Of a DNA stretch of 64,000 nt, positions 750-8,284 are shown piece after piece. Position numbers and translations under genes: made by a program. The notes under the pieces are model-generated. The model was not told the origin of the DNA. It saw only the letters and a list, made by a program, of their open reading frames with translations, and did no database searches. The stretch lies in NCBI RefSeq assembly GCF_003334355.1, contig NZ_QOWP01000020.1. One strand, written 5' to 3'. This DNA comes from Escherichia coli (GTDB taxonomy: Bacteria; Pseudomonadota; Gammaproteobacteria; Enterobacterales; Enterobacteriaceae). Each line of letters opens with the position of its first letter. The stretch's first letter is position 1.

Positions 750-2042
750 CTATGGTTTTTTATTAGAATCTTCGCCACTAAATAAATTATAATAAATTGA
801 TTTTATTAGATATCTGTCAGAATCTATATGGTCAGCACGAGTAGCATGCTCTAATGTTTCAAATGCTAGGGTTTGTGCGGCTTCAGCAAAAATTCCAGGC
901 CAACCCTTACTCAGCATCGACAGTCCTTTAAGTACCCTTATCTGAATTTCCCTCATACTGGCACCATCGCGCGCAACAGGTGAGAAAAAGTCTTCAAGTA
1001 GATCGTTATTCTGAAGTGGTGCAACATGTACAGAAGGATATTTCACTTCTATTTCATCAGATTTATTCTGCGCGTAAGCGGAAAGTATACGTACACCTCT
1101 GCCAATGACATCAATGGCGGTTCCAGGATCGTTCACTGCGGGGGAAAGGGCTCGGCAGGCTATTTCGGCCATGACGCTAAGACAAAATCGGGGGTCCTGA
1201 GCAAATGAACGTACATCCGAGACAATAATCGTCTCAAGTAAATCGGTGCTGATTGATGACTCCTGGCCCTGACTCAGGTACAAAACTGGCGTGGACGGAT
1301 GTATGAAACTGCCCGGCTGCGCCACGAGGTATACATGACGGGGATCATTGGTCAGCAGCTTGCTGAGTTTCACCATATCAACATATTCAACATAGCCAAT
1401 CTTTTTCGGATAAACTGCAACCGTTCCTTTCGGCTGTTCATTGTTCTCAAGCCATGGATATCCGCCGAGACAGGGATTTCTTGCTCTCGCAATAAATGTT
1501 TCGATGGCCGCCTGTTCTACTTTTGCCGTTGTCTCACCAACCCTCCCCAGAGAGGTCAAATGCTGTATCCAGCGAAGCAATGTGATGAGGATTAAGGCAA
1601 TGACAACCAGTGTTACAATGAATAAAATGACTCTCCCCCTTTCTCCATAAGCTCCCATATTGAGGGCAATAATCCCTACCAGACTGAAGAGAAAAGAACC
1701 GATGAAGGTGGCCAGTACATTTTGTGTGGTGACGTCTTCAACAACTAAACGAGTAGCTCTGGGAGTCACATTAGTAGTGGCTGAACCGTAGGCTGTGACC
1801 ATGATGCTCAGCGAAAATGTGGTCACTGCCAGCATACTCGATGCCAGTATGTTCAGAATGTTATCGACTGCTTCCGCACCAACCTTCACGGAAACCGACT
1901 CAGGTATCATTGATTTAAAAAGAATTGATAAAAGGGCCGTTATTATTGCGACAATTGCGAATAACGTTGCCCTGAACCATAGTTTTTTAAATGTCTGCTT
2001 CAGCATCCATTTCCAGCGTGAAATCATTCTGCATTCCCTCAT
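750..2042 (-). CDS. Integral membrane protein, DUF2254-like (4 N-terminal TM helices plus a soluble C-terminal domain)
   Basis: 430-aa ORF. Four hydrophobic helices lie in residues ~20-165, including a motif resembling DUF2254 (ATRLVVEDVTTQNVLATFIGSFLFSLVGIIAL). The coding sequence is AT-rich. An alternative start is Met6 (nt 2027). The family assignment is from memory. Confidence 0.55.
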   Translation of the reverse strand: MRECRMISRWKWMLKQTFKKLWFRATLFAIVAIITALLSILFKSMIPESVSVKVGAEAVDNILNILASSMLAVTTFSLSIMVTAYGSATTNVTPRATRLVVEDVTTQNVLATFIGSFLFSLVGIIALNMGAYGERGRVILFIVTLVVIALILITLLRWIQHLTSLGRVGETTAKVEQAAIETFIARARNPCLGGYPWLENNEQPKGTVAVYPKKIGYVEYVDMVKLSKLLTNDPRHVYLVAQPGSFIHPSTPVLYLSQGQESSISTDLLETIIVSDVRSFAQDPRFCLSVMAEIACRALSPAVNDPGTAIDVIGRGVRILSAYAQNKSDEIEVKYPSVHVAPLQNNDLLEDFFSPVARDGASMREIQIRVLKGLSMLSKGWPGIFAEAAQTLAFETLEHATRADHIDSDRYLIKSIYYNLFSGEDSNKKP

Positions 2043-2062
2043 ATTGCAGCCGGGATAAATAA

Positions 2063-2083
2063 ATGCCGCCTCTGTGGCGGCAT
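2063..2083 (-). terminator. Rho-independent terminator downstream of the BCCT transporter gene
   Basis: Stem atgccgcc/ggcggcat with a 5-nt loop. On the minus strand it is followed by tttattta. It lies in the 48-nt gap between the two minus-strand genes. Confidence 0.6.
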
Positions 2084-2090
2084 GTTGCTG

Positions 2091-4094
2091 TTAACGAACC
2101 AGATGCAGGAAGTGCAGGTGTTTTTCGTACTGGTCCAGTATGTCATTAATCAGCTGTTCCTGATTCCAGCCCATTACATCATAATTTTGGCCGCCCTCTT
2201 TGAGATAGACTTCAGCGCGATAATATCGATGTTGTTCACTCTGCTGCTCATCATTATCCAGCGCAGCGAGCGCGAAGGTCGGTGAGTTATACCCGCGAAG
2301 CCTCACTTCATATATATAATTCAGCTCGTTGCCCAAATCGACTTCAAGGCGAATACGATCCTCGGCGGCGTCACTGATGTGGCTTATCGTTCCCTGCTTG
2401 TTAAGTTCCTCCTGAACCAGCGTCATGGCGGGTTGGATAATGTCGTCCATAAAACGTTTCACAAGAGAGCGCTTCGGCAAATACGCGATATTGCGTAACC
2501 TTCTCTGCCAGGGAATTGGGTTACGTGCAGCCGTAGGAGCAATAGTCGCCATGCTAAGGCTTTCACGCTTGGTCAAATCCCGACGCAGGGCTTTTAACAG
2601 TCCGTATATGGATATTAATAAGATAACTGAGAAGGGCAATGCACTCGCTATCGTTACGGTTTGCAACGCACTCAGCCCCCCTGCGATCAGCAGGGCAATA
2701 GCAACAACGCCCATGAGCGATGCCCAGAAAATTCGCTGCCAGACGGGCGTGTTTGCCACCCCACCTGATGCCAGAGTATCCACAACCATTGCCCCCGAAT
2801 CAGCAGACGTTACAAAGAAGACGATGACCATCGCCATTGCAATGAATGACAGCACGGAAGAGAACGGGAAATGCTCCAGGAAATTAAACAGGGCAAGCGC
2901 AACATCCTGCTGAACGGTATTGGCGAGGTCAGTGGCGCCCTGGTTCATGATGAGATAGATGGCGCTGTTTCCAAACACCGTCATCCACATGAGCGTAAAG
3001 CCGGCGGGAACAAACAACACGCCAGTCACGAACTCACGAATTGTCCTGCCGCGGGAAACGCGTGCAATGAACATACCTACAAACGGCGACCATGAAAGCC
3101 ACCATCCCCAGTATAATAATGTCCAGCCCCCCAGCCAGTTGCTCGACTTGGGTTCATACGCGTAAAGGTTGAACGTTTTACTCACCAGTTCCGACAGATA
3201 ACCACCCGTATTTTCCACAAATGACTTCAGCAGAAGCACAGTGGGACCCAGGCACAAGACCAGCGCCAGGAGCAACACCGCCAGGCCCAGATTAAGCTCA
3301 GACAGGATGCGTATTCCCTTGTCCAGGCCGGACACCACCGAAATCGTCGCTAACCCCGTGATGACCACGATCAAAATGACCTGTACCGTTTCATTGATGG
3401 GCACGCCGAAAAGATGGTTCAAACCGGCATTCACCTGCAATACACCGTAACCCAGCGATGTTGCAACGCCAAAGACAGTGCCTATCACGGCGAAGATATC
3501 AACCGCGTGGCCTATAGGCCCGTAAATGCGATCGCCGATAATGGGATAGAGCGCAGAACGCAGCGTTAAAGGCAGACCGTGACGGTAACTGAAAAAGGCC
3601 AGAATCAGCGCCACGATGGCATAAATTGCCCATGCGTGCAGACCCCAGTGGAAGAACGTCAGGCGCATGGCTTCCTTCGCTGCCGCAACGGTCTCTGGAG
3701 TGCCGACAGGTGGCGAAAGATAATGCATCACAGGTTCGGCAACGCCAAAGAACATCAGGCCGATCCCCATCCCTGCCGAAAAAAGCATCGCGAACCAGGA
3801 GTGGTAGCTGAAATCAGGCTGCGCATGGTCTGGGCCCAGCTTTATATCACCGTAACGTGAGAGTCCAAGGAACGTGACGCTCAGTAAAATCAGGGCCACA
3901 GCAAGTATGTAGAACCAGCTGGCATTCGTGAAGATTTGTTGCTGAAGTAGTTTAAAATTTTTGTCGGCGACATCCGGGAATACGGCGGCAAAGGCGACAA
4001 GAAGGAAAATTAGCAAAGCAGATGTAAAGAATACCGCTTTGTTAATCTGGCTTGTAGACTTCTTTGGGGTTGTATCATTTTCACTCATAATCAT
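2091..4094 (-). CDS. BCCT-family transporter, BetT-like (choline/betaine-type osmolyte symporter) with a long cytoplasmic C-terminal domain
   Basis: The 667-aa ORF aligns by eye along its whole length with E. coli BetT (e.g. WFAMLFSAGMGIGLMFFGVAEP, RSALYPIIGDRIYGPIGHAVDIFAVIGTVFGVATSLG, GWTLLYWGWWLSWSPFVGMFIARVSRGRTIREF, C-terminal ILDQYEKHLHFLHL). It is a paralogue, not betT itself. Confidence 0.85.
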   Translation of the reverse strand: MIMSENDTTPKKSTSQINKAVFFTSALLIFLLVAFAAVFPDVADKNFKLLQQQIFTNASWFYILAVALILLSVTFLGLSRYGDIKLGPDHAQPDFSYHSWFAMLFSAGMGIGLMFFGVAEPVMHYLSPPVGTPETVAAAKEAMRLTFFHWGLHAWAIYAIVALILAFFSYRHGLPLTLRSALYPIIGDRIYGPIGHAVDIFAVIGTVFGVATSLGYGVLQVNAGLNHLFGVPINETVQVILIVVITGLATISVVSGLDKGIRILSELNLGLAVLLLALVLCLGPTVLLLKSFVENTGGYLSELVSKTFNLYAYEPKSSNWLGGWTLLYWGWWLSWSPFVGMFIARVSRGRTIREFVTGVLFVPAGFTLMWMTVFGNSAIYLIMNQGATDLANTVQQDVALALFNFLEHFPFSSVLSFIAMAMVIVFFVTSADSGAMVVDTLASGGVANTPVWQRIFWASLMGVVAIALLIAGGLSALQTVTIASALPFSVILLISIYGLLKALRRDLTKRESLSMATIAPTAARNPIPWQRRLRNIAYLPKRSLVKRFMDDIIQPAMTLVQEELNKQGTISHISDAAEDRIRLEVDLGNELNYIYEVRLRGYNSPTFALAALDNDEQQSEQHRYYRAEVYLKEGGQNYDVMGWNQEQLINDILDQYEKHLHFLHLVR

Positions 4095-4328
4095 TTATTC
4101 CATTAATTAAATCCGCACTGGATAGAAGGTACTACCTCTCACAGAGTAGCAAAGTTCAACTGGCTATGCGGGGTTAATCGGAATGCATGGTGGAATGAGT
4201 GCCGATACAAATCATCCTATATTCTAAGGAGTTTTAAGTTACTCAGCCTGCCAATTACTGGGGCATTTAATTTGTATGATCTGTATCAAAGCTGGGATAT
4301 AAGTTAAGTGAAGTATATTAGGCACGAA

Positions 4329-4367
4329 TTACCAGCGTCTGCTCTTGGCACAAAGCGGACAACCACG
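4329..4367. repeat. Hairpin repeat copy B (core 4337-4360: gtctgctc-ttggcaca-aagcggac), preceded by TTAC
   Basis: Read directly from the sequence. It has the same 8-8-8 geometry as copy A. Its left arm matches the complement of A's right arm, and the reverse also holds. Confidence 0.8.
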
Positions 4368-4428
4368 CTAGCTCTACCCTGTGCCACAAAATGTCAATTT
4401 GCATCTGAACTAATGCACTTTAATCTCG

Positions 4429-4851
4429 TCACTTCAATAAATACCGAACATCCCCCTGATAAAACGACAATATGCGCTGCATAACTTCGCTCTTCCGGCA
4501 CTCGCGACAGATTATGTTTAGGCGACTGTCGTAGCGACGTATTTCTCCGTCAGGTAATGACCAGATAAGGTCCGGATCAACCACAACCGGTTTCTTCAGC
4601 TTTGCCCTCGATAATTTTTTGCGGGCATTTTGCCAGTCTTTACGAGCCTGTTCAGACGGGAATAACCCGTAGCCAGAATTGTATACATCGCCACTGGCAA
4701 CCAGCTCTCTGGCCAGAACGCTCATCAGATATCTTGTTGCCCCAGTTTTAGCTTCCAGTTGTCGTAACGTCTCGCGCCCACTCTGGCGTACGAGTTCAAG
4801 AACCTGCCCTTTAATTTTTTCCCGCTCTTCTTGTGTAAAAACTTTTGCCAC
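4429..4851 (-). CDS. Hypothetical prophage protein (140 aa), last phage-like ORF before the cargo
   Basis: The ORF is co-directional with, and 40 nt downstream of, the replication gene. The N-terminal part looks winged-helix-like (GRETLRQLEAKTGATRYLMSVLARELV), followed by a basic central stretch. I do not recognise the family. Confidence 0.45.
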   Translation of the reverse strand: MAKVFTQEEREKIKGQVLELVRQSGRETLRQLEAKTGATRYLMSVLARELVASGDVYNSGYGLFPSEQARKDWQNARKKLSRAKLKKPVVVDPDLIWSLPDGEIRRYDSRLNIICRECRKSEVMQRILSFYQGDVRYLLK

Positions 4852-4891
4852 AAGCCCTCCTGAAAATTACCTCATGACCAGAAATTAACAC

Positions 4892-5968
4892 TTACCCCCT
4901 GAAGCCCGGCGGAATTTCGTTATCCGGTTCAGAAATATGATTCACACAACGCTGGTTGTTCGTGCCGCTTACCGGGAGCAACCAGGGGTTCTCAAAATTC
5001 CGGTCCGGTCCAAAAAACGTCGTCGCTCGCTGAACAAATTCCGTTCCCGTTTTCCCGGTAGCCGCCAAGTATCTTGCGTAACGCCTCACGCCATCCAGCA
5101 TGGCCTCTGGTGGCACCCCCTCGCGTAATCTGGCCTTCCAGGCACTGAAAGCGGATTTCTTCGGGTTTGCCCCAGCACGCAACGGGTACTCCCGCCAGAC
5201 CTGTTCGAACACATCCGGATAATCCACTCGTCCCACAGACTGCCCGGTGTTTTCCGGGACTACCCGATCGGCTTCCCGCTGAATGGCGGAATCGGCTTCA
5301 GGCTGCTGCAGTTGGTGTGATTGCTCCGCCCTTGCGGTCATCACCTGCTGCACAGCGCCCGAATCGGCTTTCAGCGCATACGCTGAATCGGCTTCCGGTG
5401 TCGTGCCTGCTGGCTGACCAAGATTGACGGTCTGAACATCCCCTGCCTGGTTCGTGGCGTTTTTTACGCCATGGACCATAGTGTTTTGATCTTCTTGATC
5501 TGTATCTTTATCTGTATCTTTATCTGTCGTGACTCGTCGTGACATGTGCGTGACATTTCGTGACGCGCCGTGACAATCGCCATTTTGTTCCCGCTTTCTT
5601 TCCCTCTCTCGCTGCGCCCTCTTGCGCTCTGCAGGAGATTTTGCGGTTTGCGAAATATTGCCGTTGTCCTCTTTAAGCACCTGGCGTTTTTCCCATCCAG
5701 TGATTAAATCACCATCAAGTACCCGCCCCTGCATCGTCTGCAAAATTGAATCAATTACCTCTTCTGTCACGTCGAGCGCACTTGCCAAATCTTCTGTCGT
5801 GACATCAATGTGACCTCGCGTGACATTTCGTGACGCGCTCACCAGGAGGTGGATATACACTGCCATCACTGTTGCAATTGGCTGTCCTGACACCCTGGCA
5901 ATTGTTCGCCACTTAGGGTCATTTGGCATGTCATGCCATAATCTGAGCCAGGCGTTAGCCATACTCAC
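4892..5968 (-). CDS. Prophage replication protein, YdaU-like (DUF1376-type, lambda O analogue)
   Basis: 358-aa ORF. Its position after the cro/cII-like genes matches the lambdoid replication module. It starts MSMANAWLRLWHDMPNDPKWR. The C-terminal segment YPDVFEQVWREYPLRAGANPKKSAFSAWKARL is typical of prophage replication proteins. The gene contains phased iterons. The family name is from memory. Confidence 0.6.
   Translation of the reverse strand: MSMANAWLRLWHDMPNDPKWRTIARVSGQPIATVMAVYIHLLVSASRNVTRGHIDVTTEDLASALDVTEEVIDSILQTMQGRVLDGDLITGWEKRQVLKEDNGNISQTAKSPAERKRAQRERERKREQNGDCHGASRNVTHMSRRVTTDKDTDKDTDQEDQNTMVHGVKNATNQAGDVQTVNLGQPAGTTPEADSAYALKADSGAVQQVMTARAEQSHQLQQPEADSAIQREADRVVPENTGQSVGRVDYPDVFEQVWREYPLRAGANPKKSAFSAWKARLREGVPPEAMLDGVRRYARYLAATGKTGTEFVQRATTFFGPDRNFENPWLLPVSGTNNQRCVNHISEPDNEIPPGFRG
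5499..5574. repeat. Putative prophage origin, part 1: AT-rich 12-bp tandem (tctgtatcttta x2.4, 5499-5527) abutting five phased CGTGAC iterons
   Basis: CGTGAC occurs at 5528, 5538, 5549, 5559 and 5569, giving spacings of 10/11/10/10 bp. All copies are in the same orientation and lie inside the replication gene. Confidence 0.6.
5793..5838. repeat. Putative prophage origin, part 2: second cluster of four phased (C)GTGAC iterons
   Basis: Copies at 5798, 5809 (tgtgac), 5819 and 5829. The 46-nt block 5793-5838 is a diverged copy of 5523-5568, exactly 270 bp away. It includes a perfect 21-nt repeat gcgtgacatttcgtgacgcgc (5548-5568 and 5818-5838). Confidence 0.6.
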
Positions 5969-6033
5969 CTCTTTTGATACCGAATCTTTTTACTCACAAA
6001 TTGCCGGAAGTGATCCGGTATGAATATTGCGCG

Positions 6034-6459
6034 TCAATGCACAGCCACAATATTTCCTGCAGGGCCACCACGATTCATCTGGTTGAAACCAGCGATCGCC
6101 ACTGCGACAAAATCATCAGCGTCTCTCACCAGTCGTTCCCGCGTCTCCACTAGTTCCCGAAAATAGGCTGAGCTATGGCTGCGCATTCGGGCCACCAGCA
6201 GAGGTGGCATTGCTTTTTCGATAGCTGGTAACAACGCCTGAATTTTTTCAACTGCATCAGGGGTGTCTTTCTCTACCCAGCGGAAAATTTTCTGGGTATT
6301 GCGAGCCAGGGCTTCCGGATGGCTGTCGTCATACAGTTCTGGGAACGTCATACCCAGTTCAAAATAAGCCCTGGTTATTTCAGCTGCCGGAACTTTTTCA
6401 CCGTCCGGATGCGCCCAGGCATTCATCGCCATGCGGATGTGTTCATGCTTGATTTTCAT
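6034..6459 (-). CDS. YdaT-family protein (CII-like regulator of Rac-type prophages)
   Basis: The 141-aa ORF shares its start (MKIKHEHI) and end (..VAVH) with K-12 YdaT as I remember it, but the interior diverges. It sits directly after the cro-like gene. Confidence 0.6.
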   Translation of the reverse strand: MKIKHEHIRMAMNAWAHPDGEKVPAAEITRAYFELGMTFPELYDDSHPEALARNTQKIFRWVEKDTPDAVEKIQALLPAIEKAMPPLLVARMRSHSSAYFRELVETRERLVRDADDFVAVAIAGFNQMNRGGPAGNIVAVH

Positions 6460-6724
6460 GAATCAAGCTCCTAGAAAGTGGTTGTGTTAACATTTTGGTA
6501 TCTTCCAGCTCGGGCCAAATATTCATCCAATCAAAAGGCCTTAGTTGCTGACGTGTAACTTCACCATTACTGGCTCGCTCAATAAGGACACATAACGATG
6601 CCCCTAACACTTGACCTTTACTCAATGCCTTTCTTAGATAACCGATGCTGGTACCACACTCGCATGCAAACATACGCTGTTCATCTGACGAAAGAGAATT
6701 GAGAAATATTCTTAATTCTTCCAT
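6443..6724 (-). CDS. Cro/YdaS-like HTH protein
   Basis: 93-aa ORF transcribed divergently from the repressor gene across the operator region. It has an HTH-like segment (ECGTSIGYLRKALSKGQ) and overlaps the ydaT-like gene by 17 nt. It differs from K-12 YdaS (from memory). Confidence 0.55.
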   Translation of the reverse strand: MEELRIFLNSLSSDEQRMFACECGTSIGYLRKALSKGQVLGASLCVLIERASNGEVTRQQLRPFDWMNIWPELEDTKMLTQPLSRSLIHENQA

Positions 6725-6752
6725 AGCTACTCCTTAGTAAACACAGCAAAGA

Positions 6753-6830
6753 ATACCCATAGGTAAACAAAAGTCAATACCCACAGGTTGTTTACCTTGC
6801 AGTAATCGCATCTATTATTTACCTATGGAC
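6753..6830. promoter_or_regulatory. Operator cluster between the cro-like and repressor genes (OR-like)
   Basis: There are three copies of a 13-14-bp palindromic motif ATACCyAyrGGTAt: atacccataggta (6753-6765), atacccacaggtt (6777-6789) and a weaker tttacctatggac (6818-6830). The weaker copy overlaps the repressor ATG at 6825. Confidence 0.6.
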
Positions 6831-7244
6831 AAATATGAATTTAGACGACAGCAACTCATCAAAATTCGTGATGAGAAATGCGATGGTAAAGCGGTTAACG
6901 TGGCCAGAAAGATCGGGCGCGAGCCTTCTTATGTATCAAGAATGTTGTACCCAGAGGGGAAAAAGGGAAAAAAACGGATCGCTGATGATATGGTGGAGAT
7001 TATCGAAGAGTCCTTTGGGTTACCCCGGGGATGGATGGATGGTATCGTTTCATCATCAACGAACACAGCCTCCAGTTATGAAACAAGGGTTCTAACGCCA
7101 CGACAACGTATTTTTTTAGATCTCTTAGACGAACTGCCAGAAAGTGAAGCGGATAACTTATTAAAAACTCTTGAAGAGAAAAAACAGTATTACAATATGA
7201 TCTACGAAGAAATCCGTAAAAAGAAAGCACAAAACGCATCATAG
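6825..7244 (+). CDS. Prophage repressor (RacR/CI-like HTH protein)
   Basis: 139-aa ORF divergent from the cro-like gene. It has an HTH (GKAVNVARKIGREPSYVSRML) and is flanked on both sides by the same operator motif. There is no Shine-Dalgarno sequence before the ATG. Confidence 0.6.
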   Translation: MDKYEFRRQQLIKIRDEKCDGKAVNVARKIGREPSYVSRMLYPEGKKGKKRIADDMVEIIEESFGLPRGWMDGIVSSSTNTASSYETRVLTPRQRIFLDLLDELPESEADNLLKTLEEKKQYYNMIYEEIRKKKAQNAS

Positions 7245-7286
7245 CTCACCAAACAACTAGTCACCAGTTAAGACACCGTAAAAAGT

Positions 7287-7324
7287 TACCCATGGGTATT
7301 TACTTTTTAAATACCTATGGGTAT
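7287..7324. promoter_or_regulatory. Second operator pair downstream of the repressor gene (OL-like)
   Basis: tacccatgggta (7287-7298, with a perfect palindrome acccatgggt) and atacctatgggtat (7311-7324). This is the same motif as at 6753-6830. Confidence 0.6.
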
Positions 7325-7498
7325 CCTTCTTTTCATACCAACCCACCCCGCCCCACAGAATGCAGGGCAATACTTCGAGTTACCAGGCAGTGGTCAGGGG
7401 TTAAGTAGCCAGCCCGAGGCGTAAGAACATGACGGCGGGATTCAAATTTTGCAGTGCAGCAGTTAGTTCCGCCACCCGGCGTTAAGGGGAGAGATAAG

Positions 7499-7633
7499 AT
7501 GGTGCATTACGAAGTAGTTCAGTATTTGATGGATTGTTGCGGTATCACTTACAACCAGGCTGTGCAGGCTTTACGCAGCAACGACTGGGATCTCTGGCAG
7601 GCAGAAGTCGCTATACGTAGCAACAAGATGTGA
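7499..7633 (+). CDS. ydaG: Rac prophage small protein YdaG (44 aa)
   Basis: Below the ORF-track cutoff. My translation is MVHYEVVQYLMDCCGITYNQAVQALRSNDWDLWQAEVAIRSNKM, which I recognise as K-12 YdaG. Confidence 0.8.
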   Translation: MVHYEVVQYLMDCCGITYNQAVQALRSNDWDLWQAEVAIRSNKM

Positions 7634-7643
7634 GATTCGCAAA

Positions 7644-7799
7644 ATGCAAAAAATCGACCTCGGCAACAACGAATCCCTGGTGTGCGGCGTGTTCCCCAAC
7701 CAGGATGGAACGTTCACTGCCATGACGTATACCAAAAGCAAAACATTTAAAACCGAAACTGGTGCGCGCCGATGGTTGGAGAAGCACACAGTAAGCTAA
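7644..7799 (+). CDS. ydaF: Rac prophage small protein YdaF (51 aa)
   Basis: Below the ORF-track cutoff. My translation is MQKIDLGNNESLVCGVFPNQDGTFTAMTYTKSKTFKTETGARRWLEKHTVS. Confidence 0.8.
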   Translation: MQKIDLGNNESLVCGVFPNQDGTFTAMTYTKSKTFKTETGARRWLEKHTVS

Positions 7800-8284
7800 C
7801 GATTAAAACGTCTACTCCTGCTGTTCCAGAATAACTTCATAAAATGGGAGTATTTTTCGGTGACGAGATAATAAGAACAGTTTGCGCTATCACTCTGATG
7901 TTGAATGATGCCCTTCCGTTCTAATTTTTTCATAACCGGGTTACGGCAAGGAGAAGTGATAATAAGATTTCCTGTTTTAAGGAAATCTTTAAATACAGCG
8001 ATTTCTTTCTCAGATAAACGAAGCAATACTCGTTGCTCTGGTAGTAATGAATAATGCTTTTGAATATGTGCTCGCAATCTTGAGAAGGAAATGGCGACCA
8101 CGAAAGAAAAGGCAAAAACGATAATCTGAAAGAGCCAAGGTATTTCAGTATAAGCATTGAATGCGACAGTAAACTCTTTCGGTATCAGCCAGAGAGTGAG
8201 ACCAAAAATGATAATCGTATACATAAGTCTTTCGAGTGGCTCGTTAGCAAAAAGTTTCAACAATGGAGTAAATACATCCAACAT
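7796..8284 (-). CDS. sieB: Superinfection exclusion protein SieB
   Basis: Track ORF 7796..8407 contains the K-12 SieB sequence from Met42 (MLDVFTPLLKLFANEPLERLMY...). This gives the known 162-aa product. Confidence 0.9.
   Translation of the reverse strand: MLDVFTPLLKLFANEPLERLMYTIIIFGLTLWLIPKEFTVAFNAYTEIPWLFQIIVFAFSFVVAISFSRLRAHIQKHYSLLPEQRVLLRLSEKEIAVFKDFLKTGNLIITSPCRNPVMKKLERKGIIQHQSDSANCSYYLVTEKYSHFMKLFWNSRSRRFNR

Follow-up and report, generated by a model that had tools for sequence, protein, structure and literature searches.

A helically phased hexamer array inside the initiator gene of a Rac-like Escherichia coli prophage is probably its replication origin

In a 64-kb stretch of Escherichia coli DNA (contig NZ_QOWP01000020.1; the whole stretch is called the window below), the replication initiator gene of a Rac-like lambdoid prophage contains two clusters of a short direct repeat (iteron) and, directly beside one of them, an AT-rich tandem. 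We consider it highly probable that the array and the AT-rich tandem together constitute the prophage's replication origin, located within its own initiator gene, and an origin made of iterons plus an unwinding element is the best reading of its type.

Results

A first-pass annotation of the window had listed nine same-orientation copies of (C)GTGAC in two clusters with a spacing of 10-11 bp, and all of its coordinates hold. GTGAC occurs on the + strand at 5529, 5539, 5550, 5560 and 5570 in one cluster and at 5799, 5810, 5820 and 5830 in the other, i.e. with spacings of 10, 11, 10 and 10 nt and of 11, 10 and 10 nt, respectively, and the motif extends to CGTGAC in eight of the nine copies, the one at 5809 being TGTGAC. 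The initiator gene is encoded on the opposite strand (Table 1), where the hexamer reads GTCACG; the cluster closer to the start of the gene is referred to here as cluster A and the other as cluster B. The single inverted copy that had been described is present as well, and so is the perfect 21-nt repeat (GCGTGACATTTCGTGACGCGC), found at 5548 and 5818, 270 bp apart; a 260-bp register aligns the clusters as well, owing to the periodicity of the repeat units. GTGAC is not generally enriched in the window (105 occurrences versus 97.7 expected), whereas nine same-strand copies are seen within 307 bp where about 0.25 would be expected, an approximately 35-fold excess with a Poisson probability of about 1e-11. 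When 1,266 tiles of 700 nt were scanned on both strands, five hexamer pairs at 10-11 nt were counted here and at most one elsewhere, which makes it the sole locus of the 64-kb window to have at least two such pairs; no second phased array was found by the tile scan. Chance is excluded as the origin of the hexamer clusters. If an array is taken to mean at least three same-orientation short repeats inside the initiator open reading frame (ORF), the gene holds four in one cluster and five in the other.

The protein carries ASRNVT..VTT twice, as had been pointed out before, and in many homologues 'SRxVT' is a recurrent element of cluster B. One could therefore suppose that the DNA repeat is a by-product of a peptide repeat under selection, an explanation which the codons render barely credible. 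Successive copies of GTCACG lie in frames 2, 0, 1 and 0 in cluster A and in frames 1, 2, 0, 2 and 0 in cluster B, meaning that all three reading frames are used, and the recurring VT, CH and SR dipeptides result from the same hexamer being read in three frames. The first-pass annotation had proposed beforehand to examine whether homologues encode the same peptides with scrambled codons. In 22 aligned homologues of the GTCACG class, sharing 58-73% amino-acid identity and coming from Pseudomonas, Bordetella, Serratia, Acidovorax, Chromobacterium and others, the codons turned out to be unscrambled and the third bases within the hexamers nearly frozen: the mean codon entropy at conserved codons was 0.13 bits when the third base falls within a hexamer (n = 8), compared to 1.44 bits elsewhere (n = 41; Mann-Whitney p = 1.3e-5). 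The near-invariant hexamer codons are V49 (GTC, 22/22), T50 (ACG, 22/22), G52 (GGT, 22/22), H53 (CAC, 21/21) and V56 (GTC, 22/22), whereas four codons are used freely at the spacer position R51 and the other valines use all four of theirs; synonymous positions are thus frozen inside the hexamers and variable in other codons for the same amino acids. V67, which bears the inverted copy, is GTG in 19/19 homologues, and CGTGAC is found 32 nt after cluster A in 12/22. Cluster B behaves differently at the protein level, in that its peptides and frames vary among homologues (examples include VTQCHAESRNVT, SRDVTATSRDVT and GHDESRKVT) while the hexamer and the 10-11-nt phasing stay. Judging from these codon patterns, the repeat is selected as DNA rather than as peptide, and it offers a clear natural case of overlapping protein and DNA-site codes.

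Relatives of the initiator were collected by scanning an alignment of the N-terminal domain against one genome per species; the resulting 80 loci belong to Gamma-, Beta- and Alphaproteobacteria and a few further lineages. A scan of viral contigs with the same alignment was set aside, as it returned only 99%-identical E. coli copies and was useless for divergence tests. Two clusters of the best phased hexamer, at gene nt ~117-166 and ~350-425, are present in about 70 of the 80 relatives, and phased pairs of the best hexamer in the first 700 nt of the gene averaged 3.2, versus 0.14 in the flanks and 0.07 in codon-shuffled genes (76 relatives). In the shared layout, cluster A is part of the DNA-binding domain's coding sequence, cluster B lies ~230 nt downstream in the disordered linker, and the AT-rich tandem comes next, cluster B being found in essentially all relatives. 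The distance between the two clusters ranges from 211 to 319 nt (mostly 227-229 nt) and keeps no fixed helical phase, being set by the protein. The same arrangement is seen in phages: in Pseudomonas phage phi1, whose protein is 69.5% identical over the N-terminal 140 residues, four GTCAC at 10, 10 and 11 nt are followed ~260 nt later by a second four and then by TGTATAAAGATACAGAAGAAGAG, and Ralstonia phage Firinga and a spring-water phage have the same layout. Extra cluster A iterons have arisen by in-frame insertion in some homologues (L007 from E. albertii, L026, L028, L030, L031 and L047); in L007 the insertion comprises seven codons (TCHGVSL), or 21 nt, corresponding to units of 10 + 11 nt, so that iteron pairs can be added without breaking the frame.

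The hexamer itself differs by subfamily, being GTCACG, GTAACG, CGAACG, GCAACG, GTGACG or ACTACG with the ACG end common to all, and initiators sharing only the C-terminal half, as in Stx phage 75/02, have no such array. The array thus travels and changes with the N-terminal domain, and co-variation of hexamer and subfamily is what would be expected of a cognate site. Arrays of direct repeats at 10-12 bp in two clusters are also typical of some plasmid centromeres (cf. PMC6009700), and one might think of the hexamers as sites for another protein, forming a partition centromere, a packaging site or a host-factor array unrelated to replication. We regard this as very improbable, given that the array is always situated in the initiator gene and differs according to the N-domain subfamily, that integrated prophages need no centromere, and that the window has no second array.

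The AT-rich 12-mer tandem that had been reported beside cluster B is present, its 12-nt units running from 5493 to 5528 and encoding DKDTDKDTD. The least stable 41-nt duplex of the gene is located here (5484-5524), with a dG of -44.7 kcal/mol compared to a gene mean of -58.7 (standard deviation, SD, 3.8), which is 3.7 SD below that mean and within the lowest 0.4% of the window. The adjacency of iterons and AT-rich DNA, to which the first-pass annotation had also drawn attention, is kept in 63 of 66 relatives, where a stretch of 25-45 nt right after cluster B is AT-richer than the gene (64% versus 44%) and consists of AGATAA, AGATAC or AGAGAA hexamer tandems with 72% purine on the coding strand. 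The tandem is retained in high-G+C hosts and in subfamilies with other iterons, and in 12 of 62 loci it is read in another frame, yielding REEKSRE- or RLDKRRV-type peptides in place of DKDKDK.

Since the tandem sits exactly where different C-domains join the same N-domain, and also occurs in ydaU of K-12 Rac, which encodes an unrelated DUF1376 initiator, it could be that the AGATAA repeats and their surroundings serve as a recombination 'linker' for the shuffling of N- and C-domain modules, rather than as an unwinding element. This appears improbable, because the tandem is kept beside cluster B across Alpha-, Beta- and Gammaproteobacteria including high-G+C hosts, far beyond the range of homology-driven exchange, and because it is always AT-rich and strand-asymmetric like known unwinding elements, although both roles can coexist.

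Two GATC (Dam) sites fall within the AT-rich element (5488-5491 and 5497-5500), and the element of K-12 ydaU contains GATC too, as does that of several enterobacterial homologues; these sites may be connected with methylation or with control by SeqA. Just after the element lies an imperfect palindrome (TGGTTCGTGGCGTTTTTTACGCCATGGACCA, 5448-5478) with 13-nt arms, 11/13 complementary, and a 5-nt loop. A palindrome is said to adjoin the AT-rich part of ori-lambda. As a part of the origin, the palindrome in the window was rejected: it is not conserved across the family, and hairpins following the AT-rich element in relatives have 6.9 matched pairs versus 6.1 in the control.

Concerning the protein, RefSeq starts the initiator at an ATG at 5962, two codons after the GTG, giving 356 aa (WP_001262352.1). 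It matches the PHROG phrog_3729 'replication initiation protein' with E = 2e-257 and, more weakly, 'replisome organizer' PHROGs (E = 5.7e-6), and its relatives are named 'phage replisome organizer' by NCBI. Pfam assigned no family at its default threshold, PF09681 (Phage replisome organizer, N-terminal domain, SPP1 gp38-like) giving a full-length match with a score below that threshold. An AlphaFold2 model built from 45 sequences has a confident N-domain at aa 4-95, with helices at 4-13, 18-27, 31-47, 58-65 and 69-79 and then a beta wing, and according to this model the domain is a winged helix of the DnaD-NTD type. A basic helix with the invariant residues R115, R120 and R122 comes next, followed by a segment predicted to be disordered (aa 131-165), in which the pLDDT of the cluster B stretch is below 50. 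When the DNA motifs are projected onto the model, the codons of cluster A map to where helix 3 ends and to the loop/strand that precedes the helix-turn-helix, those of the inverted copy map to the turn and the start of the recognition helix, and cluster B together with the AT-rich tandem encodes the disordered interdomain linker.

This linker is the junction where one N-domain joins different C-domains. Relatives P0079, P0063 and P0020 carry PF17948 (DnaT DNA-binding domain) with the same N-domain; no PF17948 match was obtained in the window initiator, whose C-domain is common to Stx phages. Its last 22-24 residues match PDB entries 6aep, 2ru8 (primosomal protein 1) and 9zbt (DnaT) as well as the NCBIfam DnaT family, and the tail may represent a mimicry of the replication-restart protein DnaT that gives access to the host primosome or DnaB-DnaC. 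Ahead of the C-domain, the linker contains ATCGGCTT four times (within 5267-5398, - strand; (G)AAGCCGAT when read in gene sense), at 5267, 5290, 5363 and 5387, spaced by 23, 73 and 24 nt and encoding the EAD of PEADSA repeats; the gene of Stx phage 75/02 (L005 2600-2713) has three copies, 75 and 23 nt apart.

The local gene order is RacR-like repressor, YdaS/Cro-like, YdaT/CII-like, initiator and DUF977/Ren-like, with recET, xis and int beyond, and the prophage is an E. coli Rac-like, lambdoid one. The DNA of the initiator gene is 100% identical in many complete genomes, a match being obtained in 2,699 of 5,426 complete E. coli genomes, and deposited phage genomes carry the same initiator (98-99% identical). 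No helicase-loader gene (P- or DnaC-like) follows the initiator in the window or in phage vB_EcoS-689R5. A promoter-like site upstream of the cro-like gene would, going by its match to the consensus, drive transcription across the initiator gene and the putative origin. An Rfam scan of positions 4000-8000 returned nothing credible. Cargo genes lie directly after the DUF977 gene (750-4094, - strand), encoding a BCCT-family transporter (2091-4094) and a DUF2254 membrane protein (750-2042), where K-12 Rac has rzpR and trkG; in strain CP53 the cargo continues with an MFS transporter, a gamma-glutamylcyclotransferase and a LysR regulator.

Table 1. Features of the initiator gene and its surroundings (window coordinates)
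Feature	Position	Strand	Remarks
Replication initiator gene	4892-5968	-	ORF of 358 aa from GTG; phrog_3729 match
Iteron cluster A	5798-5834	-	Four hexamers (gene sense: GTCACG x3, GTCACA x1) at 10, 10, 11 nt; overlaps codons 45-57 (ASRNVTRGHIDVTT)
Single inverted iteron copy	5766-5771	+	Overlaps codons D66-V67-T68
Iteron cluster B	5528-5574	-	Five GTCACG at 10, 10, 11, 10 nt; overlaps codons 132-147
AT-rich tandem, putative DNA-unwinding element	5480-5527	-	ACAGATAAAGAT x2.5, then CAAGAAGATCAAAAC; purine-rich on coding strand
Coding sequence of folded winged-helix N-domain (aa 4-95)	5684-5959	-	AlphaFold2 model
Coding sequence of basic helix just upstream of cluster B (aa 112-129, AERKRAQRERERKREQ)	5582-5635	-	AlphaFold2 helix
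C-terminal tail (aa 335-358, ...VNHISEPDNEIPPGFRG)	4895-4966	-	Matches extreme C-terminus of E. coli DnaT
Promoter-like site upstream of cro-like gene	6750-6777	-	TTGACT-16-TATTCT, 9/12 consensus positions; consensus match only

Discussion

The arrangement had initially been likened to the origin of phage lambda, a comparison that stands in part. Ori-lambda lies inside gene O and is made of four 18-bp iterons and 38 bp of AT-rich DNA (PMC3349717). As in lambda, the putative origin described here is situated inside the initiator gene, between the parts encoding the DNA-binding N-domain and the presumably helicase-recruiting C-domain, its same-orientation iterons are directly joined to an AT-rich stretch, and the likeness extends to presumed early-promoter transcription and to a position downstream of cro- and cII-type genes. 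However, where lambda has four 18-bp iterons in one cluster, the window has 6-bp direct-repeat cores one helical turn (10-11 nt) apart, arranged in two clusters with an additional inverted copy; moreover, one of the clusters is within the coding sequence of the DNA-binding domain, and no P- or DnaC-like loader gene comes after the initiator. Membership in the lambda O family was considered and rejected, as there was no Pfam Phage_rep_O match even at E <= 10 and the core is a directly repeated 6-bp one in place of ~18-19-bp dyad-containing iterons.

A second point of comparison is oriL of phage SPP1, which is located in gene 38 and combines direct repeats, bound by the replisome organizer gp38, with an AT-rich unwinding element (PMC6316719). 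Taking the SPP1 anatomy from this published description, both systems have direct repeats together with an AT-rich element in the organizer's own gene, and the 'replisome organizer' PHROG match (E = 5.7e-6) together with the DnaD-NTD-like fold would make the window initiator a distant relative of the gp38 class. The two differ in that SPP1 has its own loader and helicase and a second origin, oriR, whereas here the host is proteobacterial, there is no loader gene, the initiator has a DnaT-like tail, and the window contains no second array.

Similar in genomic setting is the Rac prophage of K-12, which has been reported to have an active origin, oriJ (PMC3945230). The initiator had been taken for a ydaU homologue, and this is true for position only (racR, ydaS, ydaT, initiator, DUF977 gene), because K-12 YdaU has a DUF1376 N-domain and different repeats; the N-domain of the window protein is not homologous to it and is apparently that of a replisome-organizer-type initiator instead. 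Homology to YdaU over the DNA-binding part was thus rejected, BLASTP similarity extending over no more than the final 19 residues and the low-complexity linker. In both genes, internal repeats are followed by an AT-rich element of the AATAAAGATACAGATAAAGATC type, and ...PPGFRG forms the C-terminus of either protein. In contrast to the window, the repeats of K-12 ydaU are of the GATGTTCAA type, in 5-6 copies with several at ~33-nt spacing, and K-12 has a DnaC-like gene, ydaV. In MG1655 ydaU (L166 3261-3633), the internal repeats are followed by the AT-rich AATAAAGATACAGATAAAGATCTAAAAACAGATC, which is nearly the element of the window, the tail being encoded at L166 3921-3977. The repeats and AT-rich element of K-12 ydaU likely mark the position of oriJ.

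An origin placed within the initiator gene is therefore an arrangement already known from lambda and SPP1, and for the family of the window initiator we found no published description of it. Searches of the literature on ydaU, oriJ, replisome organizers with iterons and the replication units of Stx phages yielded no account of the hexamer array, although an earlier description in work on oriJ plasmids or phage replication modules is possible. What sets the present case apart from the known kinds are the 6-bp cores at helical-turn spacing, the two clusters of which one lies in the coding sequence of the DNA-binding domain, and the widely conserved AGATAA-type tandem.

How such an origin would function can be outlined as follows. 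Transcription from an early rightward-type promoter would lead to production of the initiator, whose winged-helix domains, we infer from the co-variation with the hexamer, would bind the GTCACG hexamers. Because these are spaced by one helical turn, four to five protomers at cluster B would be aligned along a single face of the DNA, and binding would likewise occur at cluster A ~230 bp upstream and at the one inverted site. Oligomerisation would then bend or strain the DNA, so that the adjacent AT-rich, purine-asymmetric AGATAA-type tandem presumably melts, and the C-terminal domain with its DnaT-like tail would presumably recruit the host DnaB-DnaC or primosome machinery. Cluster A might help loading as an auxiliary platform, take part in looping, or act in control. 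The copy in the window is presumed to be active, but its origin may also be silent under RacR-type repression or may merely titrate the initiator.

It could also be that the arrays are initiator-binding sites serving mainly for control, be it autoregulation of the operon by a roadblock, copy-number control through pairing between the two clusters, or titration of the initiator that superinfecting phages with the same specificity produce. Cluster A, 230 bp away from the AT-rich element and inside a coding region with nothing to melt beside it, would fit such a role. Moreover, plasmid-borne ori-lambda iterons together with oop have been found to silence the replication of rep-lambda phages (PMC3349717), and the module is intact in ~1,650 E. 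coli genomes, yet the prophage looks defective in strain CP53. However, cluster B is always joined to a low-stability AT-rich element, which control sites do not need, and control roles are compatible with origin function, to which they are usually secondary. A role mainly in control is, for these reasons, unlikely.

Some observations nevertheless weigh against an origin. Cluster A is missing in about 10 relatives that keep cluster B, and it has no AT-rich element next to it. No DnaA boxes (TTWTNCACA) occur in or near the gene, their number in the window being at chance level. The comparative statistics ignore phylogeny. Finally, the prophage of strain CP53 with an identical initiator gene contains IS3 and IS5 elements and does not extend beyond the head genes, with no tail genes, so that the putative origin may be silent in vivo; the prophage copy in the window is apparently defective as well, with the initiator ORF and all motifs intact. 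On balance, we still consider that array and tandem are in all probability the origin of the prophage.

The placement of cluster A raises a further question, namely whether the origin and the specificity determinant of its initiator are written in the same nucleotides. The residues that best discriminate the GTCACG from the CGAACG class (the two largest), in a comparison confounded by phylogeny, are 47-58, overlapping cluster A (5795-5830), and 67-69, at the inverted copy (5762-5770); residue 33 is the sole other among the top dozen discriminators, with no discrimination by the remainder of the recognition helix or by the wing. We regard the idea as unlikely. If iteron-encoded residues do contact DNA, a change in an iteron would alter the binding site and its reader together, which would provide a built-in route to switch origin specificity in step and would explain the fixed place of cluster A in the coding sequence of the DNA-binding domain.

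Taken as the likely origin, the array and tandem give a base-pair-resolution location for the start of replication of a prophage module that about half of the complete E. coli genomes contain, as do many other Proteobacteria. They also provide a sequence rule for finding such origins, i.e. NNNACG hexamers one helical turn apart, in two clusters, followed by an AGATAA-type tandem, and the hexamer classes would constitute ready-made orthogonal pairs of origin and initiator. Defective prophages whose initiator and origin are intact are capable of local over-replication or of interference with related phages, which gives the element a bearing on the interactions of prophages with their hosts and of phages with one another.

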